This document shows positions 5,173 to 53,749 of a stretch of 64,000 nucleotides of DNA, one piece after another. This DNA comes from an uncultured Chloroflexia bacterium (lineage in GTDB: Bacteria; Chloroflexota; Limnocylindria; Limnocylindrales; CSP1-4). The stretch lies in the NCBI GenBank assembly GCA_963845925.1, contig CAWJUA010000022.1, forward strand, positions 145,863 through 209,862. Direction: 5' to 3'. The position numbers and the translations under genes are program-made. The stretch's first letter is position 1. Every line of letters begins with the position of its first letter. Below the pieces are notes generated by a model, which did no database searches, had not been told where the DNA came from, and saw only the letters and a program-made list of their open reading frames with translations.

Positions 5173-6587
5173 TCAGCCCCGGGCGGCTTCCGCCGAGCGG
5201 CGGACCGGCTTGCGGTGGAGGAGATGCTGCGCCCGCGGCGCGCCGCGACCCGCGCTGCTGCGGCCCCGTCCCGTATCGGGCCCACCGCGGAGCGGCTGCG
5301 GCGGCGTGTTCCGGTCGGGGATGAAGCCCTCCTCGACCGTCCACGGGATCGCCTTGCGGAGCAGCCGCTGGACGCCCCGCAGCAGGTCGGTCTCGTCGAT
5401 GCAGACGAGGCTGATCGCGTCGCCCATCTGGCCCGCGCGTCCCGTCCGGCCGATCCGGTGGATGTAGTCCTGCGGGTTCCACGGCAGCTCGAAGTTCACG
5501 ACGTGGGGCAGGTCCTCGATATCGAGGCCGCGGGCCGCGACGTCGGTCGCGACGAGGACCCGGATCTCGCCCGACTTGAACCCTCGAGCGCCCGCGTCCG
5601 CTCGGGCTGCGTCCGGTCGGAGTGGATCGCGACCGCGTCGATCCCGGCCCGGTCGAGCCACGACGCCAGCCGTGAGGCCGCGAGCTTGGTCCGGGTGAAC
5701 ACGAGCACCTGGCGGAGGTCCTGCGACCGGATCAGGTGGGCCAGCAGCTCCTCCTTGCGGTCGCGGTCGACCGGGTAGACGAGCTGGCGGATCGTGTCGA
5801 TCGTCGCGTTGCGCGGCGCGACCTCGACCTCGACGGGGTTCCGCAGGATCGTCTTCGAGAGGCGCCGGATGTCGTCGCTGAAGGTCGCCGAGAACATCAG
5901 GTTCTGGCGCTGTGCGGGGAGCAGGGCGAGGATCTTCTGGATGTCCGGCAGGAAGCCCATGTCGAGCATCCGGTCGGCCTCGTCGAGGACGAGAATCTCG
6001 ACCTGGCTGAGGTTCGCGACCCGCTGGCCGACGAGGTCGAGCAGGCGGCCCGGCGTCGCGACGAGGATCTCGATCCCGCCGCGGAGGGCCTTGATCTGGG
6101 GATCCATCGGGATGCCGCCGTAGACAACGGTCGAGCGGAGCGGCACGGAGCGGCCGTAGGTCCGGACGCTCTCGTCGACCTGCATCGCGAGCTCGCGGGT
6201 TGGGACGAGGATGAGGACGCGGACCGGGTGACGGGCCGGCGAGAAGGAGGTGTTCGCGTGATGCCGGAGCCGGTCGAGGATCGGCAGCGTGAACGCCGCG
6301 GTCTTGCCGGTGCCGGTCTGAGCGGCGGCGAGAACGTCGCGGCCTGCGAGGACGAGGGGGATGGCCTCCGCCTGGACGGGAGTCGGGATGATGTAGCCCT
6401 CCTCCTTGACGGTCTGGAGGAGATCGGCCGACAGGCCGAGCGAATCGAAGGTCAAGTGGTCTCCTGCGGGCCCGACCGCGGCCTGATCGTCAGGCGTCTG
6501 GCGGTGGGCTGTTGGGGCTGGGTCGACGGGCCGCCGGCCCGCGCAATCGTTGTAACGCGAACGAGCATACCCGATCCGGGGCGTCAA
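5173..6587 (-). CDS. DEAD-box ATP-dependent RNA helicase (RhlE/CshA-like), interrupted by an apparent single-base frameshift near 5580
   Basis: Motifs Q, I (AQTGTGKT), Ia (PTRELA), II (DEAD), III (SAT) lie in ORF 5496..6587. Motifs V/VI ([15 protein letters not shown]) continue in ORF 5173..5661 in another frame. The junction RALEG|[10 protein letters not shown] sits at a short A/T run. The likely start is the TTG at ~6455 (MTFDSLGL). The RG-rich C-terminal tail is typical. Confidence 0.85.
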
Positions 6588-10547: not shown

Positions 10548-11217
10548 CGGATGCCTCCGGGTTGGTCGTCGTCGATTCCGAGGGGTAGATCGCGAGCAGG
10601 TAGCCGAACGGGACGGCTCCCGGCTCGACCTTGGAGGGATCGTCGGTGTCGAACTCCTCGAGGAGCTCGCGAAGCCGTCGGCGGAGCTCGGCGGCCCGGT
10701 CGGGGTGGAGCATCGTCAGGCCCCGGACGAGCAGCTCGCGGAGCGGGTCGTCCTCGGACTTGACCATGCCGCTCGCGAGTCCCCGTTCGATCTCGTCACG
10801 TACCGAGTCGAAGACGACCGCGAGGACGTCGTGAACGCTGCTCCGGACGTCGGCGCCGGCGCCCGAGAGCAGGGACCGGTCGAGCCGGATGGACATCGCG
10901 CTGATGCGGTAGCTGGTCTCGATGATCCCCGAGACGACGCGCGTGCCGGCGATACGGATGAGGTCGCGCTCCTCGAGGATGTTGATGTGGTGGTAGAGCT
11001 TCGTCGTGTTCGTGCCGAGGGCCTTCGCCAGGCGCTTGACCGTCCAGGCCTCGTCCGCCGCGGTGACCATCGTCTCGAGGATCCGGAGGCGGACCGGGTC
11101 GGAGATCGCCTTGAGCGTCTCGACGTCCGAGATCACGCGCTCGGCGAGCGGCTCGAAGGGCTCGACATCCTCGCCGCTGCCCGTTGCCGCCGCGCTCACC
11201 GCTGCCTGATCGTTCAT
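10540..11217 (-). CDS. ArsR-family (HTH_20-like) transcriptional regulator, co-transcribed with the MFS transporter
   Basis: HTH ISDPVRLRILETM...VKRLAKALGTNTTKLYHHINILEERDLI. ATG at 11217 with AGGAGC SD. The track ORF extends to a TTG at 11238. Confidence 0.8.
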   Translation of the reverse strand: MNDQAAVSAAATGSGEDVEPFEPLAERVISDVETLKAISDPVRLRILETMVTAADEAWTVKRLAKALGTNTTKLYHHINILEERDLIRIAGTRVVSGIIETSYRISAMSIRLDRSLLSGAGADVRSSVHDVLAVVFDSVRDEIERGLASGMVKSEDDPLRELLVRGLTMLHPDRAAELRRRLRELLEEFDTDDPSKVEPGAVPFGYLLAIYPSESTTTNPEASDD

Positions 11218-11230
11218 TCCGCTCCTATCA

Positions 11231-11246
11231 TTCAACAATCGTTGAA
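11231..11246. promoter_or_regulatory. Perfect 6-4-6 palindrome TTCAACaatcGTTGAA, candidate autoregulatory operator
   Basis: Lies 14 nt upstream of the ArsR-type regulator ATG (minus strand) and overlaps its 5' UTR. ArsR-family repressors bind palindromes of this kind. Confidence 0.4.
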
Positions 11247-11537
11247 CGTACAGTAGCGGCTAACAAGCAGATGTCAAGCCCTGGGCGGCTGCTTGTCGGC
11301 GTTGGGCACCGGAATTCCGCTGGGAGCGGCCAAACCCGGGGTAACCGGCCAATAGGGCCTCCCGACCCGGGCGGTTTCGGGCGAGCGCGTGCTCAGCCGA
11401 ACGGCGGAGCGCCCGCGCGAGGGCCCTGGGCCGACCGTATCGCCCTCCAAGGCCCCGAATTTGCCGGTGGGAGCGGAATTGGCGTCGCCAAGGCGGAACC
11501 AGTCGGCGTCCGCGAGTACGCGGCCGGCCCCCGCCGC

Positions 11538-14500
11538 TCAGCCTGGCGCGGCCGCGAAGCTCCCCGGCGAGCTGGCACGGGCCCCGGCGCCACTCCCCGT
11601 CGACCCCGGGAACGGTGCCGCCTCGACCGAGATCTCCTCCATCTTCGCCGCGTAGAACCCGTAGCGCCGGCGCGCCTCGCCGTGGCGTCCGGCCGCGACC
11701 AGCGCGGCGACCAGTCCCAGGTGGGCGCCCTCGTCGTACGGGTCGCGCTCGAGGATCCGGAGGTAGTAGCGGGTCGCGCCGTCGGCGTCGCCGTCCACCG
11801 CGGCGGCCTCGGCCAGCGACCGGGCGATCGAGATGTACGTCGCCTGGGCCTCCTCGCGCAGCGCCGACCGCCCAGTCCTCGTACGGGTCCTCCTCGAGGA
11901 AGTCGCCGCCGTACAGCGCCTCGGCCGTCTCCAGCTTCGACCGCGCGGTCCCCGCGTCGCCCGATGCGGGCCAGCCGTGCGGCCGCCGCCGCCTCGACGA
12001 GGAACGCCTCGACGTCGAGCTCGAGGTGGTCGAGGTCGAGCGCGATCGAGCCCTTGTCGGCCGGCACGAAGTACTCGGCCGGGTAGCGCTTGTCCGGGTC
12101 GAGGACGGACCGGACCGTGGCCAGCGCGACCGACAGCCGGTTGCCGAGCGGCTCGGGGTCGTCGTCCGGCCAGAGCAGCTCGAAGAACGTGTCGCGGGTC
12201 GTCGGCCGGCCGCGCCGCGCGACGAGGATCTTCAGCAGGTCGCGGGCCTTCTTCGACTGCCACGCCGTCGTCGGGACGGGCATCGCCGTCGCGGACGAGC
12301 CGGAACCGCCCGAGCGACTGGATCCGGAGCGTCGGCCGCGCCGCGCGGTCGTGATCGCCTCGACGATCTCGTCCGCGTCGGCGGCCGGCCCGCGGGCGCC
12401 CATCGAGCGGAAGGCCCGCTCCGCCTCGATCGCGGCGTCCCGCCCCGCGTCCCCGCCGGCGATCCGGGCGAACACGAGCCGGTTGCGGGCGTGGCCGTAC
12501 GGCGCCGGCGAGCCGGCACCAGATCCGAGGCGGCCTCGTCGACGAGCGCCGAGCGCCTCGTCGGGGTCGAGCGCGGTCAGCGCCGCCAACTCGAGCGACG
12601 CGGCCATCCCCGGATCGTCGCGGCGCGCCCGCGACACCTCGATCGCCTCGCGTGCGCGACGCTTCGGCCGCCTCGCGGTCGCCGAGGGAGAGCGCGACCC
12701 GCGCCGCGCCGAGCAGGACCGTCACGGCCGCGACGTCCCGGCCGATCGCCATCGCCCGCTCGGACGAGCTCGGCGGCCTGGGCCGGGTCGTCGAACACGA
12801 TCGTCTGGGCGAGCCCGATCAGCGCCGGCGCGAGGGCCTGGCTGTCGTTCGCGTCGCTCGCCGCGCGGACCGCGTTCTCGAACGCCGCCCGGGCGAGGAA
12901 CCCGTCGCCGCGCAGCGCGTGCATCGAGCCCTCGCGGGTCAGCGCCAGTGCCACGGACGGCGACCCGATCCGCTCGTAGATCGCGCGGGCCGCGGTGAAG
13001 TCGGCCATCGCCTCCTCGAACCGGCCGATGCCCTGCTTGGCCCGGCCGCGGTTGACGAGCGCCCGGGCGTGGAACGCGGAGAAGCCGACCGTGTCGGCGT
13101 GGCGGACGGCCTCGTCGAGGATCTCGAGGGCCGGCCTCGAACTGGCCGCGCTCGACCTCGAGCGCGCCGCGCGCGTTGCGGATCCGGGCGACCTGGAGCG
13201 CGTCGCCCGCGCGGTCCGCGGCCACGAGCGCGGCCGCGTAGTCGGACGACGCGCGCGAGGGATCGTTCGCGAGCTCGTGGAGCTGGCCCATCGCGGTGTG
13301 CGCGGCGGCCATCGCCCGCGGGTCGTCGCAGGCGACCGCCAGCGCGACGGCCTTCTCCGCCGCGACCCGGCTCGCCTCGACGTCGCCGCGGTGGGCGTGG
13401 GCCGAGGCGATCCACGCCTCGAGCAGCGCTTCGTCGGCCGGCTGGCTGCCGTCGACCTCGGCCCGGGCGTAGATCGCGAGGGCCTCGCCGTAGGCGCCGC
13501 GGACGCCGTGGACCACGCCCATGCGCCACGCGGTCGCCGCGTCGAGTCGCCCATCCGGCCCGACCGCCCGGCCGAACGCGGCGAGCGCCTCGCGCCACTC
13601 CCCGCGGGCCAGGCACGCCTCGCCGAGCGCCCGCTCGATCGCCGGCTCGCGGAGCTCGATCGGCACGAGCGCCGTCGCCTCGACGACCTGGCGCGTGGCG
13701 CCGCGCAGGACGAGCTCGCCGCCGTGGCGGCCGAGGAACCGGGCCAGCGCCGCCGGATCGTCGGCCTCGACGAACGAGGCCAGCGCCGCCTCGAGCCGGC
13801 CCTCGCCCTCGAACCAGCCGGCCGCCGCGTGGTGGAGGTCGCGGATCTCGGCCGGCGACAGCGGCAGCCGGGCCAGCGTGTACTCCCGGATCAGCCCGTG
13901 CAGCGAGAACCAGCCGGCCTCGCCCGGCAGCGGTTGGAGGAACAGCGCCCGCTTCGCGAGCTCCTCGAGCGTGTGGGCCGGGTTCGGCACGCCGATCGCC
14001 GCCAGCAGCGGCGCCGAGAACCGGTCGAAGTGGACCGCGCTCCTGACCAGCGCCCGGGTGTCGTCGGTGGCGTTCGCGACGACCTCCTCGGCGAGGTACG
14101 CGAAGATCGGGCCCTCCGGACGCTGGAGACGATCGAGGACCGCTTCGCGGTCGCCGCCGGGCGCGTTCCGATACGCCTCGAGCGCGAGGCGGACGGCCGC
14201 CGGCCAGCCGCCGGTCGCGACGTGGATCCGCGTCGCCGCGACGTCGTGCAGGTCGGCGTGATCGCGGTCGTCGCCGAGCAGGGCGTGGAGCAGCTCGTGG
14301 ATCTCGTCGGCCGAGAAGGCGAGCGCGGTCCCACCCAGGTCGAGCACCTGGCCCTGGCCCCGCAGCCGCTCGATCGCGAACGGGACCTCCGACCGGGACG
14401 TGACGAGGACATGGAGCCCGGCCGGAGCGAGCCGGACGAGCGCCTCGACGAAGCGGAGCGAGCCGGACGCCCCGGCGAGGACGTGGAGGTCGTCGAGGAC

Positions 14501-14989
14501 GAGCACGAGGTCGTCGTCGAGCGCGGCCTGGAGCGCGTCGACGACGAGCGCGGCCGCGGCCGACGCCTGGGCGACGATCGCCGCGTCGTCGGTCGCCTCG
14601 ATCGAGCTCTCGACCGCGTCCGCGGTGTCGTCGGCGATCGCGGGCACGCGGACGCGGAGCGCGGCGGTGATCCCGGACGCGAGCGCGCCGATGTGGCGGT
14701 CGGAGGCGTCGAGCGTGTACCAGGCGGTCGGGCGGGCCGCGGCGACGCGGGCGGCGAGCGTCGACTTCCCGAAGCCGGCGCCACCGACGACGATCGTGAG
14801 CCGGCGGTCCGTGCCGTCGAGCAGCCGCGCCTCGAGCTCGGGTCGGGCGAGCGTCCCGATCGGATCCGTCGGCGGCAGCAGCTTCGCCGACCGCCCGCGG
14901 CCCGCGCGCGTGACCTCGTCGCGCGCCGGCGGCGTCGCCCCGGCTGTTTCGGTCGTCGATTGCCTGACGGCGTCGGGGTCGGCGGTCAT
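11538..14989 (-). CDS. Very large regulator: STAND/MalT-like P-loop NTPase, TPR repeats, then C-terminal OmpR-type winged HTH + BTAD (SARP module). Broken by five or more apparent frameshifts (possible pseudogene).
   Basis: Walker A TIVVGGAGFGKSTLAA and Walker B LVLVLDDLH near the N-terminus (14.9-14.4 kb). Long TPR-like region follows. wHTH (WQSKKARDLLKILVARRGRPTTRDTFFELLWPDD..) and BTAD (AEALYGGDFLEEDPYEDWAV..YYLRILERDPYDEGAHLGLVAALVAAGRHGEARRRY) lie at 12.3-11.5 kb. The sequence hops between all three frames near 13140, 12715, 12655, 12320/12290, 11900 and 11850. Confidence 0.7.
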
Positions 14990-15110
14990 CGGGATCCCCT
15001 GCGAACTGTCGCAATGGTACGAGCCGCCAGCGCCCGCGGCCATAGACTCTCGGCCGATGCGGCCGGACGCTCATCAGGATGATCAAGGATTACAAAGTGC
15101 AAAGAGGACT

Positions 15111-15140
15111 TGACATATAGAAAGTCCATTGGCATATTGT
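15111..15140 (+). promoter_or_regulatory. Sigma-70-like promoter in an AT-rich island (TTGACA-N17-CATATT)
   Basis: The only strongly AT-rich stretch locally (gatgatcaaggattacaaagtgcaaagaggacTTGACAtatagaaagtccattggCATATTgt). It lies ~30 nt upstream of the GTG start (15173) of the DUF2089 gene, which has a GAGGA SD. Confidence 0.45.
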
Positions 15141-15172
15141 GGCCCATCACCTCACAAACCACGAGGAACCCA

Positions 15173-15602
15173 GTGCCGCACGACGTCATCTCCACCTGTC
15201 CCGTCTGCTCCAGCGAGCTGGCGGTCACCCGCCTCCACTGCTCGAGCTGCGGGACGACCCTCGAGGGCGACTTCAGCGTCGGCCGGTTCGGCCGGCTGTC
15301 GCGCGATCAGCTCGCCCTGCTCGAGAGCTTCCTCCGGTCGCGGGGCAACCTCCGCGACATGGAGCGCGAGCTCGGCATCTCGTACCCGACGGTCCGCTCG
15401 CGCGTCGAGCAGCTCGTCCGGTCGCTCGGCTTCGGGCCGCGCGGCGACGACGACGCGACCGACGACGCGACGGCCGCCGCACCCGCCGGCGACGCCGCCG
15501 GGAACCCCGTCCCGACAGGACATCCTCGAACGGCTCGCTCGCCATGAGATCGGCGCCGAGGAGGCCGCGGCGGCCATCCGGGCGCTTGGGAGGACCCGAT
15601 GA
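15173..15602 (+). CDS. DUF2089-family protein (zinc-ribbon + HTH) with a SHOCT-like C-terminus. Apparent frameshift near 15512.
   Basis: CPVCSSELAVTRLHCSSCGTTLEGDF...LSRDQLALLESFLRSRGNLRDMERELGISYPTVRSRVEQL. The C-terminal RQDILERLARHEIGAEEAAAAIRALG is in a +1 frame (ORF 15129..15602). The junction sits at a CCC run. Confidence 0.7.
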
Positions 15603-16682
15603 ACGCGACCGACACCACCCAGACGATCGAGCACGGCATCGGCGACCACGGCATCGTGACCGTCCGCCTCGCCGACTGGGACGCCGAGATCCGCGGCATC
15701 GACGGCGACACGGCCCGGGTCTGGAACGCGAACGGCGGCCCGCTGCCGGACGAGCTCCAGGTCGACCGGACTGCCGACGGCATCGCGATCCGGCAATACG
15801 ACAAGGGCCTGACGATCGTCCTCGGCCGGCGCTCGCGCGACGTCCGACTCGCGATCGAAGTCCCGAAGTCCGCCGCCGTCTCGATCCAGACCGCGAGCGG
15901 CGACGCCCAGGCGACCGGCCTGCGCGGCCCGGTCAATGCCCGGTCCGCGAGCGGCGACCTGATGCTCGTCGACGTCAACGGCGAGGTCCAGGCGGAGACC
16001 GTGTCCGGCGACGTCGCGATCCGCCTCGACGGCCCGACCGGCCTCGTCGTGAAGACGGTCTCAGGCGACGCGATCGTCGAGGGCAGCCGGGTCGACCGGT
16101 TCGCGTTCACGACGACGAGCGGCGACCTGCGGATCACGAGCGAGCTCGGCGCGGGACCGCACACGATCGCGACGGTCAGCGGCGACGCGATCGTCACGAC
16201 CCGCAACGGCATCCGGGTCTCGGCCCAGACCGTCGCCGGCGATCTCAGCAGCGACCTGCCGCACAGCTCCGAGGGCCGCGCCGGCCGCCGCTCGCTGATC
16301 GTCGGCGAGGGCACGACCGTCGTCCAGTTCCGCTCGGTGTCGGGCGACCTGCGGGTCGTCGGGCCGAATGACGGCAACCACCTCGTCGCCCCGACGCCGC
16401 CGGCCCCGCCCGTCGCCCCGACGCCGCCCGCGCCGCCGGTCCCGCCGCTCGCGGCCGCCTCCGCCGCGGTCGAAGCTCGAAGCGGAGCTCGAGGCCACCA
16501 ATGCCGAAATCGAGGCGGCTAATGCCGAAATCGAGGCGGCCAACGCGGAGATCGGGGAGACCGTCGCGGACCCGGGCGAGGACGCCCGCCTCGAGATCCT
16601 CCGCGCGCTCGAGCGCGGCGAGATCGGCATCGACGAGGCCACGAAGCGCCTCGCCGAGCTGGACGGTCAGTCCGATGTCTGA
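15599..16682 (+). CDS. DUF4097 / LiaG-YvlB-like putative adhesin (beta-helical SGD repeats) with a coiled-coil C-terminus. Apparent frameshift near 16472.
   Basis: Repeated ...SGD(V/L)x(I/V).. units (ASGDAQA, ASGDLML, VSGDVAI, VSGDAIV, TSGDLRI, VSGDAIV, VAGDLSS, VSGDLRV). A Pro-rich linker (APTPPAPPV x2) follows. The C-terminus KLEAELEATNAEIEAANAEIEAANAEI..RLEILRALERGEIGIDEATKRLAEL continues in another frame (ORF 16368..16682). Confidence 0.7.
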
Positions 16683-17070: not shown

Positions 17071-17094
17071 CCACGAGCCCAAGGAGCAGGAACG

Positions 17095-17358
17095 ATGAAC
17101 GCGACCTTCGACGGAGCCCGGATCCATCAGCAGGAGCTCGATCGGGAGATCGAAAGCATCCGCACCGAGAAGTTCCTCAACGCCCAGGTACCGAGCCGGC
17201 CCGGCCCGATGGCCCGCGGCCTGGCGTCGGTGGGGCGGGGGATGATCAGCGTCGGGACGGCGCTCGCGAGCCGCGTCGACGCGGCTCCGGCGCGCTCGAC
17301 CGGACGGCGGCCAGGCCTGACCGTCAGGCCCTCGCCGGATCGCTTCGAGCGTCCTTGA
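17095..17358 (+). CDS. Small hypothetical protein (87 aa)
   Basis: Perfect SD (AAGGAG) 9 nt before the ATG. MNATFDGARIHQQELDREIESIRTEKFLNAQVPSRPGPMARGLASVGRGMISVGTALASRVD. Confidence 0.5.
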   Translation: MNATFDGARIHQQELDREIESIRTEKFLNAQVPSRPGPMARGLASVGRGMISVGTALASRVDAAPARSTGRRPGLTVRPSPDRFERP

Positions 17359-18573
17359 CCACGATGCCGCCCTTCATCACGATCGGCACGTCGGACAGCA
17401 CGCCGACGTCCGCCAGCGGATCGCCCGCCACGGCCACGAGGTCGGCGGCGAGTCCGCGCGTCAGCCGCCCGACGCGGTCGCCCCAGCCCATCAGCTCCGC
17501 GGCGACGACCGTCGCCGAGCGGAGCGCCTCCGCCGACGTCATCCCGTATCGGACGAGATAGGGCAGCTCGCCGGGCGTTGAGCCCGTGCGGGTAGACCCC
17601 GCTGTCCGTCCCGTAGGCGAGGCGGACCCCCGCCGCGACGGCCTTCCGGAACCCCTCCCGCTGGGCATCGGTCGTCTGCCGGTTCTTCTCGAGCGTCTCG
17701 GCCGGCCACCCGTCGCGCGCCCCGACCTCCTCGATCCAGTCGCCGTCGTAGATGTCCGCGACCCAGAACGTGCCGCTGTCGGCGAGCAGCGCGATCCCCT
17801 CGTCGTCGATGAGCGAGCCGTGCTCGACCGACCGGACGCCGGCCCGGATCGCGACCTTGATCCCCTCGGTGCCGTGGGCATGGGCCGCGACGAAGACGCC
17901 GTGGGCCGCTCGCCTCCTCGACCGCCGCCCGGACCGTCGCCTCGTCGAGCTCGACGACGTCCGGCCTCGTGCCGCGCGTGAGGACGGCGCCGGTGACGAT
18001 CAGCTTGATCAGGTCGGCGCCGCCGCCGACGAGCTCGCGGACCTTCTGGCGCGCCTCGGCGGGCGATCGCACGACGCCGAAGCGCAGGTCCGCGGGAAGG
18101 GTGACGTCGAGGGCCAGCCCGGTGACCTCGCCGCCGCCACCGGGCGAGGTGACGTAGGCGCCGGCGCACTGCATCCGCGGGCCGGCCAGCCAGCCGGCGT
18201 CGATCGCGTCGCGCAGCGCGACGTCGACGAACGCGCGGTACGTGCCGACGTCGCGGACGGTCGTGAACCCCGCCTCGATCGTCGCTCTCGCGTTCCGGAC
18301 GCCGGTCATCGCCTCCTCCGCGGCGCTCGTCGTCGTCGCCGGCACGCCGGCGAACTCCATGTCGCCGATGAGGTGGCTGTGGCAGTCGATGAGGCCGGGC
18401 AGGATGGTCAGGCCGGACAGGTCGAGGACGCGCGCGCCGTCGGGCGTCGCCTCGCCGTCGCCCAGGACGGCCTCGACCGCGCCGTCCGCGATGAGGAGCT
18501 GGCGACCGCCGAGGACCTCGCCCGCGTCGACGTCGAGGAGGTCCGCGCCGCGGATGACGAGGAAGTCCGCCAT
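17324..18573 (-). CDS. Metal-dependent amidohydrolase (imidazolonepropionase / Xaa-Pro-dipeptidase-like superfamily), split by an apparent frameshift near 17930
   Basis: N-terminus with the HxH metal motif (LIDCHSHLIGD) is in ORF 17539..18573. The middle (AAHGVFVAAHAHGTEGIKVAIRAGVRSVEHGSLIDD...) and C-terminus (LPYLVRYGMTSAEALRSATVVAAELMGW..DLVAVAGDPLADV) are in ORF 17324..18169 and a third frame. Confidence 0.75.
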
Positions 18574-18614
18574 GGCGGCCGATCCTAGCAGCCGTCCGAG
18601 GCTATGATCGGGCC

Positions 18615-31250: not shown

Positions 31251-33347
31251 ATGCCTGCTGCCCTGCAGGTGCTTTCGCCTGTCCTCGTCGCGGTCCTGGC
31301 CGGGCTCGCGATCGTCGTCGCGTTGCTCGTGGTCTGGGCGACCCGGTCGGTCCAGTTCATCTCGAACAACCGCGTCGGTGTCGTCGAGAAGCTGTGGAGC
31401 CGGCGTGGGTCGGTGCCCTCCGGGCTGATCGCGCTCCGCGGCGAGGCCGGCTACCAGCCGGACGTCCTCCGCGGCGGCATCCACCTCTTCCGGCCGTTCC
31501 AGTACCGCGTCCACCGGTTGCCGCTGGTGACGATCCCCCAGGGCCAGATCGGCTACATCTTCGCCCGCGACGGCGATCCGCTGCCGCCAACCCAGACGCT
31601 CGCCCGGTTCCCGGACGGCGCCGACTTCGGGGACGTCCGGTCGTTCCTGGCGAACGGCGGTCAACGCGGCCCGCAGCGCCGGATCCTGCGCGAGGGCACG
31701 TACGCCGTGAACCTCGCCCAGTTCGTCGTGATCACCGACGGCCGCGTCTTCGGCCTGCCGCTCGAGAAGAGCGACACCGCGCTCCTCGACGAGATGGCGA
31801 CGCTCATCGCCGAGCGTCACGGGTTCGAGCCGGTCGTGCTGACCGGCACCGACGACGTCCTCGGCGTCGTGACGATCCACGACGGCCCGTCGCTCGAGCC
31901 GGGCGAGATCATCGCCCCGACCGTCGGCGACGACGCGTCGAGCGCGGCCACGTACCACAACAATTTCCAGGATCCGGAGCGCTTCCTCGCCGCCGGCGGC
32001 CGCCGCGGCCGCCAACTCGCGGTGCTCGTCGAGGGCACGTACTACCTCAACCGGCTGTTCGCGACGGTCGAGGTCGTGCCGAAGGCGGTCGTCGAGGTCG
32101 GCACCGTCGGCGTCGTCGTCTCGTACACGGGCGAGCACGGCTCCGACCTGTCGGGCGACGCCTACGGCCACGGCGAGCTGGTCGGACGCGGCGAGCGCGG
32201 CGTCTGGGCCGAGCCGCTGCTGCCCGGCAAGTACGCGTTCAACACGTACGCCGGCAAGATCGTGATGGTCCCGACGACGAACTTCATCCTGAAGTGGAAT
32301 CGGGAAGAAACCGGGTCCCACAACTTCGACGAGAACCTGTCCGAGGTCGACCTGATCACCCGCGACGCGTTCGAGCCGAGCCTGCCGCTGTCGGTCGTCG
32401 TCCACATCGACTATCGCAAGGCGCCGCTCGTCGTCCAGCGCTTCGGCGACGTCAAGCGGCTCGTCGAGCAGACGCTCGACCCGATGGTCAGCGCCTACTT
32501 CAAGAACGTCGCCCAGACGCGGACGCTCATCCAGCTCATCCACGACCGGGCGGCGATCCAGGACCAGTCGAGCGTCGAGATGCGCGGCCGGTTCGACCGC
32601 TACAACCTCGAGCTCCAGGAGGTCCTGATCGGGACGCCGATGCAGGGCCACGGCGACGCCAAGCTCGAGGAGATCCTGACCCAGCTCCGTGCACGCCAGG
32701 TCGCCGAGGAGCAGGTCGAGACCTATACCCGCCAGCAGACGGCGCGGTGAAGGAGCGCGAGCTGCGCGAGGCCGAGGCCCGGGCCAAGCAGCAGACGTCG
32801 ATCACCGAATCCGAGCTCTCGATCGCGATCCAGGCCAACCACGGCAAGGCGGACCTCGCCCGGGCGGAGCAGCAGGCGGCCCAGATGAAGGCGCTCGCGG
32901 CGGCCGAGGGCGAACGGACGCGGCTCCTCGGGGCGGGTGAGGCCGCCCGCGGTGAGCTCGCTCGCCGGCGCCGAGGCGGAGCGCGCCGCTCGCGTCGGCG
33001 TGGCGCAGGCGCTCGCGATCGAGGAGCAGGTCCGGGCCTACGGCGGGCCGCGCTACCAGCTCACCCAGCAGGTCATGTCCCGGTTCGCCGAGGCGATCCA
33101 GCAGGCCGGCGTCGACATCGTGCCGAAGGTCGTGATCGGCCACGACCGGCGCGACGGCGAGGGCGACGGCGCGTCGCCGATCGGCGGCAGCGTCCTCGAG
33201 GCGCTTCTGGCGATCCTGCTCTCGGACCGGCTCGGGGTCGACGTCACGGGCGAGGGGAGCGAGGGCGCCGGTCGCACGCCGAGCGAGGCGGCCCGCGTCG
33301 TCCGCGAGGAGCTGCAGCGCCGGCTCGGCTCGGGCGAGGCCGCCTGA
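31251..33347 (+). CDS. Flotillin / SPFH-domain (band 7) family membrane protein. Two apparent frameshifts (~32745 and ~32945).
   Basis: AAGGAG SD, then ATG at 31251. N-terminal TM with SPFH domain. The EA-rich flotillin coiled-coil (AVKERELREAEARAKQQ..AEQQAAQMKALAAAEGERTRLL) and C-terminal part (SLAGAEAERAARVGVAQALAIEEQVRAYGGPRY...) lie in two other frames. Confidence 0.75.
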
Positions 33348-33414: not shown

Positions 33415-34573
33415 TCAGTCGACGACCATCCCGAAGGGCGCCGCGCCGCCCGGGATCGCCACCGGCGAGCCGGCTCAGCTCGGTGAGGCCGGTCCCCTCG
33501 ACCGCGAAGACGCTGACCTTCGCCACGCCGGCGTCGACGACGTAGAGGAACCCGCCGTCGGGCGAGACCGATGCGTCGAACGGCCGGAGGCCGGTCGGGC
33601 TCGTCATGCCGGTCGATCCGGCCAGGGCCAGCGTCCCATTGGCCGCGACCGCGTAGCGCGAGATCGAGCTGACGCCGGTGTTGATCGCGAACAGGGCCGA
33701 CCCGTCCGGGCTCAGCGCGACCCAGCAGGGGGCCGTCTGGTTGTCCGCAAACGGCGAGCCGCTGATCGCGGTCAGCCCGCCGTCCGAGGCGACGTCGTAC
33801 ACGGACACCGATCCGTTGCCCGGGCCGTCGTGGGCGTTCGAGACGAACAGGCGGTCATCGTCGACCGGCGAGAAGGCGCTGCCGAACGGGCCGATCCGCT
33901 GCGCGGCGAACGGCGAGCCGGCTGCGGCGGTCAGACGGCCGTCGGTGCCGATCCGGAAGCCGTCGAGGTACGACGGACCGGCGTTCGGGCCGACCCGGGT
34001 GCCGACGAGGCGCCGGCCGTCCGGGCTGATGAGGACGTGTCCCGGAAGGGCGTTGTCCGGCAGGGCGACGGTCGAGTTCGCGATCGGCGTCAGGTGGCCG
34101 CCGGCGTTCAGCTGGAAGCCGGTGTAGTTGCTGCCGCCGGCGCCGCCGTTCGCGACATAGACGAGGCTGCCATGGACCGCGATGCTCGTCGGGAGGCGGC
34201 CGTTCGCGTCCTGGACCTCGACGAGGCGGAGCGCGCCGTTCGGCAGGATGCGCAGCACGGAGATCTCGTTGCTGCCGGGGTCCGTCGCGAGGAGGTAGCG
34301 GCCGTTGGCCGTCTCCTGGAGGCCGCCGGCCGAGCCGAACGGGGCGCCGGTGCCGACGCCACCGGCGTTGAACGGGGAGCCGGCGATCGGCGTGAGCGTG
34401 CCGTCGGCATGGCGGTTGAAGCCGGCGATCGTGTTGTGGCCGGCGCTGTTGTTGTTGACGTAGACGTGGCCGACGACCGGCGAGCCGGCGGCGAATGCGG
34501 CGCCTGCGGTGAGGCTCGCGGCGACCAGGGCGACGGTGGCCGCCAGGCCGAAGAGGCGGGCGATGCGGTGCAT
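33415..34573 (-). CDS. Secreted beta-propeller protein (YVTN / lactonase-like repeats). Apparent frameshift near 33480.
   Basis: Signal peptide. Repeated LYVANGG..SN / LFVSNAHDGPGNGSVSVYDV / LYVVDAGVAKVSVFAV blades. The C-terminal 20 aa (SPVAIPGGAAPFGMVVD*) are in a different frame ending at 33415. Confidence 0.7.
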
Positions 34574-38131: not shown

Positions 38132-38969
38132 GTGCGGCTGCCCGAACGCGCCGATCAGCTCGCCTGGGGGATCCTGGGCGCGACCGCCGCCGCGACGTTC
38201 GCCGTCTGGATGTTCTTCTTCCCAGACTCGATCGCGGAGAAATTCGCCTGGGACGTCCATCCGCGGATGACGCAGCTGTTCATCGGTGCCGGGTACGTCT
38301 TCCGGACGGCGTTCTTCCTGTCGGTCGCGTTCGGGCGCGACTGGCGGCAGGCTGCGCTGGATGTTCTGGGGCAACCTCGCGTTCACGGGGACGCTGCTGC
38401 TGGCGACGTTCTGGCACGCCGGCGAGTTCAACTGGGATCCGTCGCAGACGATCGTCGGCCACCTCTGGCTGATCCTGTACATCTTCGAACCGGTCACGAT
38501 GCTCTACATGGTCCCGCGCGGCGTGTGGCGGCTCCCCGCCCCGACGGAGGGCGGCCCGATCTGGCTGCCGTTCCGCTGGTTCATGATCGCGGCGACCGGC
38601 CTGCTGCTCTCCGACGGCCTGCTGCTCGTCATCAACCCGGAGTTCGCCGCACTCCGGTGGCCGTGGGAGCTGAACCCGCTCGACGCGCGGATCATGGCGG
38701 CCTGGTTCCTCGGCTGGGCTGTCTGGCTCGGGACGATGGCGTTCGCCCGTGACTGGCTCGAGATCCGGCTGCCGGCCGCGCTCTTCATCCTCAACGGCGC
38801 GGCGCTCACCGCCGTCAACTTCCTGAACGGCGATCTGCTTAGCGGCACGGGGCCGGCGCATGCGTACCGGACCGGCCTGCTGCTGCTGACCCTGCTGATG
38901 GCGGGCTTCGCCGCGTACCAGGAGGTTCGCCGGGTCCGGAGCGTGCCAGCGCGCGAGGTGGAAGCATGA
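38132..38969 (+). CDS. Polytopic membrane protein of unknown function, translationally coupled to the P450 gene. Apparent frameshift near 38340.
   Basis: GGGGAGGA SD, then GTG at 38132. The N-terminal part (ORF 37946..38752) and the remainder (ORF 38286..38969) are in different frames. The stop overlaps the P450 start (ATGA). Confidence 0.5.
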
Positions 38970-40390: not shown

Positions 40391-40723
40391 ATGACTTCTC
40401 AACGCCGGCTTCCCGCCGAGCGCGATCGCGCGGTCGCCCGCCTCCACTCGCTGACCCGGGGCGCGGCCGTGGGCGGCGTTCTTGGCACGCTGCTGTTCGG
40501 CGCCGTGGCGGCAGCCTCGTATGACGGAACCGTTACGACGACGACGGCGGCGAACTCCAACGAGAGCGCGGCCCAGGTTGCCGCCGACAATTCGACGGCC
40601 AACGGAGCGACCGCGACGACGGACGGCGAAAGTTCGACCGACGACAGCCAGCTCCAGGCCACCCCGGCGCCCACGACCTCGACGACGTCGGGCGCCGCGC
40701 ACGCCTCGACCGGCGGCTCATGA
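40391..40723 (+). CDS. Small exported Thr/Ala/Ser-rich protein (110 aa) heading the ApbE operon. Candidate flavinylation substrate.
   Basis: N-terminal TM/signal (GAAVGGVLGTLLFGAVAAASY) and a low-complexity TS-rich tail containing ..DNSTANGATATTDG.., which resembles the ApbE target motif [ST]GA[ST]x[ST]. Its stop overlaps the apbE start. Confidence 0.45.
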   Translation: MTSQRRLPAERDRAVARLHSLTRGAAVGGVLGTLLFGAVAAASYDGTVTTTTAANSNESAAQVAADNSTANGATATTDGESSTDDSQLQATPAPTTSTTSGAAHASTGGS

Positions 40724-41700
40724 CCGACATCGCAGCGGCCGGCTGGCGGGCCATCGGCACCGGCGTCCGCGTCGTCGTCCACGATGGCAGCCTCGACGCC
40801 GCCCGGGCGGCCGTGGTGGACGTCCTCGACGAGGTCGACCGGGCCCTGAGCCGGTTCCGCGACGACAGCGAGCTGTCCCTGTTGAACGCCCGATCCGGCG
40901 AGGAGGTCGGCGCTGTCGCCGCTTCTCGGCGACGCGATCGCGGCCGGGCTGCGCGCGGCCCGGATCACGAACGGCGCCGTCGACCCGACGGTCGGGCGGG
41001 CGATGCGCCTGATCGGCTACGACCTCGACTTCCGGAGCCTGCCCCAGGACGGAGCGCCGCTCGAGGTCCGCTTCGAGGCCGTGCCCGGCTGGCAGACGGT
41101 CGCGCTCGCCGCGGACCGCCGCCGCGTCCGGGTCGCGCGCGGCGTCGAGATCGACCTTGGTTCCGTCGGCAAGGCGCTCGCCGCCGATCTCGCCGCGGGT
41201 CGTGCGCATGCGACGCGATGGGCCGCGGCGGCGTCCTCGTCTCGCTCGGCGGCGACATCGCCGTCGCGGGTACGCCGCCCGACGGCGACTGGCGGGTCCT
41301 CGTCGCGGAGGACAGCGAGGCGCCGGCCGACGGACCCGGCGAGGTCGTCGCGATCCGGACCGGCGCGATCGCGACGTCGAGCACGACCGTCCGGCGCTGG
41401 CGGCGCGGCGACCGCGCCCTGCACCACCTCATCGATCCTCGGACCGGCGCCCCGGTCGAGTCGCCGTGGCGGACCGCGTCCGTCGTCGCGGCCACGTGCG
41501 TCGACGCCAACACGGCCGCGACCGCGGCGATCGTCCTCGGCGACGCCGCGCTTGACTGGCTCGGGTCGACGGGCCTCGTCGCCCGCCTCGTCTCGACCGA
41601 CGGCGAGGTCGTCCGCGTCGGCGGCTGGCCGGAGCCGGCCGAGACGCGATCGTCTCCGGAAGCGGGCGCCCTCGTGTCGTCCGGACGGGCCGGCTCGTGA
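40720..41700 (+). CDS. apbE: FAD:protein FMN transferase (ApbE family). Two apparent frameshifts (~40913, ~41218).
   Basis: ApbE hallmarks IDLGSVGKALAADLAA, LVSLGGDIAV, HHLIDPRTGAPV, DANTAATAAIV. The central third (SPLLGDAIAAGLRAARITNGAVDPTVGRAMRLIGYDLDF...) lies in ORF 41003.. in another frame. Confidence 0.75.
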   Translation: MTDIAAAGWRAIGTGVRVVVHDGSLDAARAAVVDVLDEVDRALSRFRDDSELSLLNARSGEEVGAVAASRRRDRGRAARGPDHERRRRPDGRAGDAPDRLRPRLPEPAPGRSAARGPLRGRARLADGRARRGPPPRPGRARRRDRPWFRRQGARRRSRRGSCACDAMGRGGVLVSLGGDIAVAGTPPDGDWRVLVAEDSEAPADGPGEVVAIRTGAIATSSTTVRRWRRGDRALHHLIDPRTGAPVESPWRTASVVAATCVDANTAATAAIVLGDAALDWLGSTGLVARLVSTDGEVVRVGGWPEPAETRSSPEAGALVSSGRAGS

Positions 41701-53229: not shown

Positions 53230-53749
53230 ATGGGAACATCCACGACTGATCTCGCCCCGCAAACGGACGCCGCGGATCACGACCCGGCCCACGACTTCGA
53301 CTTCTACTTCGGGTCGTGGCGCATCCACCACCACCAGCTCGTCGAGCGGCTCGCCGGGAGCGACACCTGGCGGGAGTTCGAGAGCACGTCCATCGCCCAG
53401 CCGACGATGGGCGGCCTCGGCAACATCGACGACAACGTCCTCGACCACCCCAACGGCACCTACCGCGCGATCTCGATCCGGGCCTACGACCCCGAATCGA
53501 GGCAGTGGGCGATCTGGTGGCTCGACGGCCGCAACCCGCACCACATCGACCCGCCGGTCATCGGCGGCTTCGAGGACGGCGTCGGGACGTTCATCGGCGA
53601 GGACACGTTCAACGGGCATCCCGATCCTCGTCCGGTTCCGCTGGTCGGACATCACCGAGACGACCTGCCGCTGGGAGCAGGCGTTCTCGACTGACCAGGG
53701 CGAGACCTGGGAGGTGAACTGGGTGATGGAGTCGACGCGGATCTCGTAG
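53230..53749 (+). CDS. Hypothetical protein (DUF-like, WxW/His-rich). Apparent frameshift near 53620.
   Basis: GGAGACGA SD, then ATG at 53230. The body is in ORF 53173..53694 and the C-terminus (ILVRFRWSDITETTCRWEQAFSTDQGETWEVNWVMESTRIS*) in ORF 53102..53749 in a different frame. Confidence 0.5.

Follow-up and report, generated by a model that had tools for sequence, protein, structure and literature searches.

The DNA analysed here, called the window, is a stretch of 64,000 nucleotides (nt) from an uncultured Chloroflexia bacterium (contig CAWJUA010000022.1, positions 145,863 to 209,862). On its minus strand, running from 14989 down to 11538, lies a gene for a large transcriptional regulator that begins with an ATG at 14989 and ends with a TGA stop codon at 11540-11538; the limits 11538-14989 given in an initial annotation made from the letters alone coincide exactly with this gene. 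As assembled, the gene is not readable in one frame: four overlapping open reading frames (ORFs) in three frames of the minus strand between 15043 and 11538 hold the pieces of one protein. Removal of 11 nt yields a stop-free ORF of 1164 codons counted from an upstream ATG at 15043, or 1146 codons counted from ATG 14989. Residue numbers of the repaired protein are counted from ATG 15043 (1164 amino acids, aa) throughout.

In the raw ORF fragments, Pfam profiles detected AAA_16 in 12722-15043, TPR_12 in 12722-15043 and 12577-13554, Trans_reg_C in 11393-12637 (28 bits) and BTAD in 11538-12752, so that both C-terminal domains were found by profile search in the 12.3-11.5 kb segment where the initial annotation had placed them. 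In the repaired protein, AAA_16 maps to residues 77-214, TPR_12 occurs twice (57 bits for the better match), Trans_reg_C maps to residues 927-983 with 26.5 bits against a cut-off of 26.2, and BTAD to residues 1006-1138 with 51.4 bits against a cut-off of 22.1 (E 1.9e-13). These matches bear out the proposed order of an NTPase, TPR repeats, an OmpR-type winged helix-turn-helix (wHTH) and BTAD in one translational unit. The two motifs singled out in the NTPase module, Walker A (GGAGFGKST) and Walker B (LVLVLDDLH), are both present. Among 66 homologues that share 45-88% identity with P0001, the best database match (92% identical, 1160 aa), the Walker residues G89, G91, K92, D183 and D184 are invariant, as are W924, S926, K928, R930, D931 and other residues of the wHTH. 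This implies that selection maintains functional parts at both ends of the protein.

Residues 53-452 matched positions 5-392 of the NCBIfam MalT model NF003420 (E 1.3e-46, 159 bits) and, in a sequence search, the solved MalT module PDB 8bob (E 5e-26); WHD_MalT (PF25873) is recorded in homologues. The best PDB sequence match of the C-terminal 266 aa was the SARP domain of AfsR (8hvr, E 2.6e-5), and EmbR (2fez, E 2.9e-4) could be aligned across both the wHTH and BTAD. The profile search of the repaired protein returned no NB-ARC and no GerE or LuxR match. An AlphaFold model of P0001 based on the 66-sequence alignment, with a mean pLDDT (predicted local distance difference test score) of 88.8 and a pTM (predicted template modelling score) of 0.66, contains an alpha/beta NTPase, after which come helical and winged-helix parts. 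Continuous helical hairpins are predicted for residues 396-898 with pLDDT mostly >90, a small beta-sheet followed by three helices for residues 902-977, and an all-helical domain for residues 1006-1132. The top Foldseek matches of this model were 6mfv (E 3e-14) and MalT 8bob (E 8e-13); TPR proteins dominated this whole-protein search, which returned no SARP structure. From its module matches the protein is predicted to be a signal-transducing ATPase of the STAND class and of MalT type, in which a SARP output replaces MalT's helix-turn-helix (HTH) of the LuxR type.

The frame changes, which had been put at at least five, are real in the given sequence and more numerous than first counted. Alignment of the DNA with L001, the contig that carries P0001 as a single gene, followed by multiple alignments with seven and eight relatives, identified ten insertion events (nine of +1 and one of +2, 11 nt), all of them within 11861-13134 (Table 1). 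Compared to the aligned relatives, the window's copy of the gene has no private deletion, and its first 1.9 kb are free of any event. The ten insertions are absent from eleven relatives in all, including the JGI contigs L084, L095 and L096, presumably from short reads, which are 91-93.5% identical at the DNA level, lack all ten insertions and encode proteins 96% identical to the repaired one. The repaired junctions match those of the relatives, for example at ...AASIWAGSPAPYGH... and ...RPTLRIQSLGRFRLVRDGEPVP.... On the plus strand the inserted bases are G (7), T (5), A (1) and C (1), mostly not extensions of homopolymers, and many of them adjoin a mismatch. Extra bases relative to L082 and the JGI contigs extend into the downstream intergenic region at 11282-11528, which shows that the poor stretch crosses the gene boundary. 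Ten events in 1.27 kb compare with about seven verified events in the other 62.7 kb of the window (Poisson P ~8e-16). The initial annotation had stated that the locus changes frame far more than neighbouring genes; this holds as a matter of density, but the neighbours carry frame breaks too.

Table 1. Features of the regulator locus and genes elsewhere in the window with extra or missing bases (window coordinates)
Feature	Position	Strand	Evidence or remark
Whole regulator gene as assembled	11538-14989	-	tblastn match of P0001 (1160 aa) spans the locus end to end
MalT-type nucleotide-binding oligomerisation module	13688-14887	-	residues 53-452; AAA_16 at 14402-14815
TPR-like paired-helix repeats, ~500 aa, presumed arm and sensor	12339-13855	-	best TPR_12 match 12973-13192
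OmpR-type wHTH	12040-12335	-	Trans_reg_C match 12086-12256
BTAD, directly after the wHTH	11619-12019	-	Pfam BTAD; alignment with EmbR 2fez
5' leader and divergent promoter region, common to the DUF2089 gene	14990-15140	-	alignment with relatives
Private +1 insertion 1 (extra C/G in GGCCGG)	13133-13134	-	site ~13134; absent from L001, L002, L004, L005, L006, L013, L082, L083, L084 and L095
Private +1 insertion 2	12764-12766	-	site ~12764; L082 has a different extra base 2-3 nt away
Private +1 insertion 3	12662-12664	-	site ~12662; alignments with relatives
Private +1 insertion 4	12550-12551	-	site ~12550; alignments with relatives
Private +1 insertions 5 and 6	12518-12530	-	sites ~12526 and ~12518; removal of both restores conserved ...AASIWAGSPAPYGH
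Private +2 insertion 7, placement ambiguous within span	12335-12351	-	site ~12351/12350; alignments with relatives
Private +1 insertion 8	12282-12285	-	site ~12282; alignments with relatives
Private +1 insertion 9	11965-11966	-	site ~11966; alignments with relatives
Private +1 insertion 10	11861-11866	-	site ~11863; alignments with relatives
DEAD-box helicase	5290-6461	-	frame change at 5584; C-run one base shorter than in L082
DUF2089 gene	15110-15602	+	ends near 15547/15602; private +1 at 15502 versus L138 (95.7% identical)
DUF4097 ORF	15599-16522	+	private extra base at 16470 near the 3' end versus L138
Amidohydrolase	17351-18579	-	three frames; private +1 at 17910 and 17569 versus L082 and L138
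ApbE	40657-41646	+	three frames (profile positions 2-44, 50-141 and 148-257); breaks at ~40910 and ~41205

The substitutions in the gene carry a signature of selection on both sides of the first break. Between the repaired gene and L001, dN/dS (Nei-Gojobori method, with the L003 row left out) was 0.175 in the intact 5' part and 0.153 in the frameshifted 3' part. With L002 as outgroup, the codon changes assigned to the window's branch in the 3' part were 31 synonymous and 10 non-synonymous, compared to 50 and 10 on the branch of L001. The neutral expectation of about 2.7 non-synonymous changes per synonymous one is rejected for the window's branch (binomial P ~2e-10), and the ratio does not differ between the two branches (Fisher P 0.45). 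A pseudogene old enough to have acquired ten indels should show dozens of neutral substitutions and some stop codons; the gene shows neither. Natural gene decay in bacteria is biased towards deletions. All ten events in the gene are insertions (sign test P 0.002), as are 15 of the 17 events verified window-wide (P ~0.002).

A search with the 773-aa N-terminal ORF returned 632 matches; 110 of the 120 best contain BTAD (PF03704), and most of these are proteins of 1,050-1,200 aa that also carry AAA_16, WHD_MalT, TPR and Trans_reg_C. They are named 'BTAD domain-containing putative transcriptional regulator' by NCBI and 'MalT / SARP family' or 'MalT / DNA-binding SARP family transcriptional activator' by JGI. 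The gene thus belongs to a large annotated family of about 1,100 aa that is common in Candidatus (Ca.) Limnocylindrales (Chloroflexota) and in Actinomycetota, and judged by its sequence it is a plain member of the clade that bears the NCBI name. In species-representative genomes, full-length matches occur in metagenome-assembled genomes (MAGs) of Ca. Limnocylindrales and other Chloroflexota, in many Lentzea species, Kibdelosporangium and Actinophytocola, and in Nitriliruptoraceae, Gaiellaceae and Acidimicrobiales. The initial annotation had left it to relatives to decide between one ORF and two, and they have one: P0001, residues 1-1160 of which are collinear with the window locus across its three frames, and single intact ORFs with a C-terminal BTAD in L002 (1166 aa), Lentzea waywayandensis DSM 44232 (1001 aa; NZ_FOYL01000005.1, ~256265-259270) and Kibdelosporangium banguiense DSM 46670 (1031 aa). 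Trans_reg_C falls below the Pfam cut-off in L002 and L. waywayandensis and is not listed for K. banguiense.

The gene neighbourhood is kept in close relatives only. Neighbourhoods of the Lentzea and Kibdelosporangium orthologues have nothing in common with the window locus and are not biosynthetic clusters; one comprises a Tct transporter, a short-chain dehydrogenase and a TetR regulator, the other an amidohydrolase, a luciferase-like oxygenase and an aminotransferase. Two further observations concern relatives. At positions 2517-2519 of L083 (ENA contig HuN_farmland_Scaff1311593) an in-frame TAA stands in place of the TAC (Tyr, ...SADYAAAL...) of the relatives, and the orthologue is called there as two proteins of 584 aa and 535 aa; this TAA may be erroneous or a genuine nonsense allele. 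Contigs L004 and L013 are labelled as Verrucomicrobiia MAGs; the Limnocylindrales-type locus on them, 72-78% identical in DNA, lies in the same gene neighbourhood, and both contigs are probably mis-binned.

Frame breaks are not confined to the regulator gene (Table 1). In the DEAD-box helicase gene, positions 2-59 and 61-110 of the Helicase_C profile lie in different frames, and the break at 5584 is the only clear 1-nt deletion verified in the window. The amidohydrolase gene contains positions 1-144, 146-256 and 264-342 of the Amidohydro_1 profile in three frames. In the DUF2089 gene, a helical-looking tail (DILERLARHEIGAEEAAAAIRAL) continues in another frame past 15502, near the 3' end. A further private extra base versus L138 was noticed at 17089. 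In a codon log-odds scan, the coding signal shifts frame or ends early at 32738-33344 (plus strand), 38156-38924 (plus), 53251-53743 (plus) and 33464-34573 (minus), which are candidate frameshifts. Among the scan-flagged regions 1160-2456, 32738-33344, 38156-38924 and 53251-53743, Pfam confirmed no split gene; 1160-1627 is a complete GreA gene.

L082 (ENA ERZ25039584 contig_13070, 343 kb, presumably from long reads) is ~97% identical at the DNA level to positions 4498-24556 of the window. Over 20 kb, 67 indels separate the two sequences (about one per 300 bp), almost every one of them 1 nt long, a number much higher than coding DNA of this identity would allow. L082 lacks eight of the ten insertions and has extra bases of its own in the regulator gene at 14839, 14617, 12946 and ~11707, as well as 2-3 nt from 12766 and 12526. 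Inheritance of the insertions at 12766 and 12526 together with L082 was considered and rejected, since the inserted bases differ, lie 2-3 nt apart and are absent in the three closest contigs. The regulator copy of L082 and other genes of its 21.8-kb locus (MFS, DEAD helicase, amidohydrolase) are fragmented, and gene calls from this assembly are unreliable. The segment of ~250 bp at 11283-11531, between the regulator stop codon and the HTH_20 gene, was found in the window and L082 only, with 87% identity between them compared to ~97% in the surrounding DNA; L001 has ~39 bp there. Short repeats 145-147 nt apart occur in it; Rfam gave no match, and the window contains no second copy.

Since the insertions are private, dN/dS is equal in the two parts of the gene, its events are insertions only and other genes are broken as well, the frame breaks appear to stem from the assembly and not from the evolution of the gene. 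Consensus or assembly errors in a locally poor stretch at 11.3-13.1 kb, rather than gene decay, are their most likely cause, and the organism's own gene is most likely intact. We consider it highly probable that the locus is a single MalT-type STAND gene with a C-terminal SARP module and that all ten frame breaks are consensus errors private to this assembly. A decaying pseudogene, as the initial annotation had suggested, is not what these data describe: removal of 11 nt restores the ORF, both halves are under purifying selection, only insertions occur, and other genes show this kind of defect too.

Several observations weigh against this interpretation. The events are ~60-fold denser at 11861-13134 than elsewhere in the window (P ~8e-16), and insertions that are biased to G/T and mostly outside homopolymers fit no error profile that we can name with confidence. 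Since the split from L082, nine non-synonymous private changes have accumulated in the 3' half versus none in the 5' half. Five of these nine lie at insertion sites and may hence be an effect of the repair; a slight real relaxation of selection in the 3' half may also have contributed. In addition, every step of the mechanism proposed below is drawn by analogy, because our literature search found no experimentally studied member of the family.

Divergence from L082 is unevenly distributed along the gene. In the 3' half the window has 22 private codon changes since the split and L082 has 3, compared to 10 and 17, respectively, in the 5' half. Synonymous changes make up 13 of the window's 22, which indicates real allelic divergence and not noise. 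This mosaic, with 11541-13134 differing from 13135-14989, suggests recombination or a consensus that is chimeric between strains. The clustering may be due to a strain-variable stretch in which mixed or sparse reads underlay the consensus.

If the insertions were nevertheless real, the gene could be a very recent, strain-specific pseudogene, in whose 3' half small insertions arose in a burst before substitutions could accumulate. This is an improbable explanation, in whose favour speak the presence of the insertions in the given sequence, their strong clustering in one half of the gene, the slight excess of private non-synonymous changes there since the L082 split, and the nonsense codon of L083 (here called short-read), according to which natural loss of the gene may occur. 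It would require ten indels with at most a handful of neutral substitutions. Moreover, the repaired frame contains no stop codon, the broken half has the dN/dS of the intact half, the events are insertions only, the extra bases run on outside the gene at 11282-11528, and the defect is shared by the DEAD-box helicase, amidohydrolase and ApbE genes of the window. Less probable again, by our estimate, is a localised, insertion-only and G/T-biased mutational burst that struck 1.3 kb of one gene in one strain very recently; if true, a so far unknown mechanism of targeted mutagenesis or a defect in repair would have to be supposed.

As another option, the initial annotation had proposed that two neighbouring genes, one for an ATPase with TPR and one for a free-standing SARP, are fused here; in the form considered by us, the two would be joined in appearance only. 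Gene callers do split the orthologues of L082 (594 and 343 aa) and L083 (584 and 535 aa). However, the split in L083 results from one in-frame TAA amid continuous homology, and the splits in L082 coincide with private 1-nt insertions. Clean relatives, cultured strains included, have one ORF, which argues that the gene is not a fusion. Homology is unbroken over the junction between TPR and wHTH, where neither a start codon context nor a promoter-like site is present; a promoter scan found no such site anywhere within the regulator gene, although it covered only a sigma-70-type consensus and is weak evidence. Two genes are therefore very unlikely. We give the least credence, next to none, to recoding, by which programmed ribosomal frameshifting, transcriptional slippage or editing would express the gene as written. 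All shifts run in one direction, and this is its sole support. The ten sites lie in 1.3 kb without a common motif or slippery sequence, no Rfam family reached the gathering score anywhere in the window, and the closest relatives, with proteins of 96% identity, lack the sites, which effectively refutes it.

Alignment with relatives also bears on the 5' end of the single gene. Two close relatives, L138 and L084, have CTG where the window has the upstream ATG at 15043, and in L083 and L002 the distance between this position and ATG 14989 is altered by a 1-nt indel, which implies that the stretch 15043-14989 is non-coding; by this comparison the conserved start codon is ATG 14989 and not ATG 15043. 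Upstream of ATG 14989, nucleotide-level conservation is seen in the block TACCATTG...TTCGCAGGGGA(T)CCCGATG, and the AGGGGA just ahead of the ATG could serve as a ribosome-binding site. The leader at 14990-15140 (TACCATTG ... TTCGCAGGGGATCCCG) is conserved in nucleotide sequence even where relatives are only ~74-83% identical across the region. Within the divergent promoter region, a conserved TTGACATATAGAAAG block and the adjacent heptamers CTTTGCA and CTTTGTA are possible regulatory sites. The sole sigma-70-like site found by the promoter scan in 11100-15300 lies at 15110-15138 on the plus strand. SARP-family activators bind direct repeats that overlap the -35 region; in both flanking intergenic regions, nothing convincing was found in the way of such repeats, just short two-copy matches. 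A divergent pair of DUF2089 and DUF4097 genes lies upstream of the regulator gene, and genes for an HTH_20 regulator and an MFS transporter lie downstream.

The part order of MalT combined with a SARP module in the place of its LuxR-type domain leads us to expect an activation sequence like that of MalT and AfsR. STAND regulators such as these two are autoinhibited monomers that respond to an inducer with nucleotide exchange and conformational change or oligomerisation (PMC10936776). In AfsR, ATP binding, and not hydrolysis, activates the SARP effector, which is restrained by the NTPase and TPR domains (PMC10936776). Repeated DNA motifs are the binding sites of SARP modules, and recruitment of RNA polymerase is attributed to BTAD (PMC10972967). 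By analogy, the resting state of the regulator would be an autoinhibited, ADP-bound monomer. Binding of a ligand or partner by the TPR sensor would release the autoinhibition, whereupon the NTPase would take up ATP and the protein would oligomerise. The oligomer could then gather its C-terminal SARP modules on direct repeats at a target promoter, where BTAD and wHTH may recruit RNA polymerase and activate the promoter. The family would in this way show a SARP module controlled from the opposite end of the protein.

The reversed SARP architecture represents a real and widespread family of Chloroflexota and Actinomycetota that is annotated and apparently unstudied. A SARP classification by N-terminal modules alone misses this reversed family, to which a cultured Lentzea or Kibdelosporangium orthologue offers an accessible entry point. 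With regard to the window itself, at least five genes are frameshifted, gene calls from this assembly will be fragmented, and the frame breaks should not be taken as biology. The locus is best annotated as one gene, probably intact with sequence errors, instead of three or four ORFs or a pseudogene.

In all described SARP classes, the small, medium and large SARPs and the SARP-LAL proteins, the SARP module is at the N-terminus (PMC10972967; PMC12224297). Here it occupies residues ~900-1140 of 1164, which sets the protein apart from an N-terminal SARP. The order called unusual in the initial annotation is thus indeed the reverse of every described class, but the same layout recurs in hundreds of single-ORF database proteins of ~1,000-1,200 aa. 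In the literature we found no description of a C-terminal SARP module on a MalT-type NTPase, which does not prove that none exists. The SARP-LAL proteins PimR, SanG and FilR likewise combine a SARP module with an AAA_16/LAL-type ATPase (PMC10972967; PMC12224297); they have the SARP at the N-terminus and were described from Streptomyces biosynthetic gene clusters, whereas it is C-terminal here and the surroundings are not cluster-like. AfsR and other large SARPs of Streptomyces, too, consist of a SARP module, a STAND NTPase and TPR. In AfsR, however, an N-terminal SARP module is followed by NB-ARC and a C-terminal TPR part, an order that is reversed here. Unlike that of AfsR, the NTPase matches MalT and AAA_16 models and returned no NB-ARC match, and the AfsR equivalog NF053617 matched the TPR part only, with 46.6 bits against a cut-off of 1430. 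With its reversed order and no NB-ARC, the protein is not an AfsR-type SARP.

The best structural match, PDB 6mfv, a STAND protein with a TPR domain, covers the NTPase and TPR part of the model, its chain having 641 residues versus 1160 in the query. EmbR of Mycobacterium tuberculosis has a similar wHTH and BTAD module in a chain of 388 aa (2fez). In EmbR this module is at the N-terminus and is followed by an FHA domain, and the protein has no NTPase or TPR sensor. MalT of Escherichia coli and the LAL regulators share the order found here, with a P-loop oligomerisation module, an arm and sensor of helical repeats and a C-terminal DNA-binding domain. The latter is a LuxR/GerE-type HTH in MalT and an OmpR-type wHTH with BTAD here, and the 159 bits scored against an equivalog cut-off of 537 indicate that the protein is not a MalT orthologue. 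Altogether, it resembles MalT with a SARP output, or AfsR turned around.

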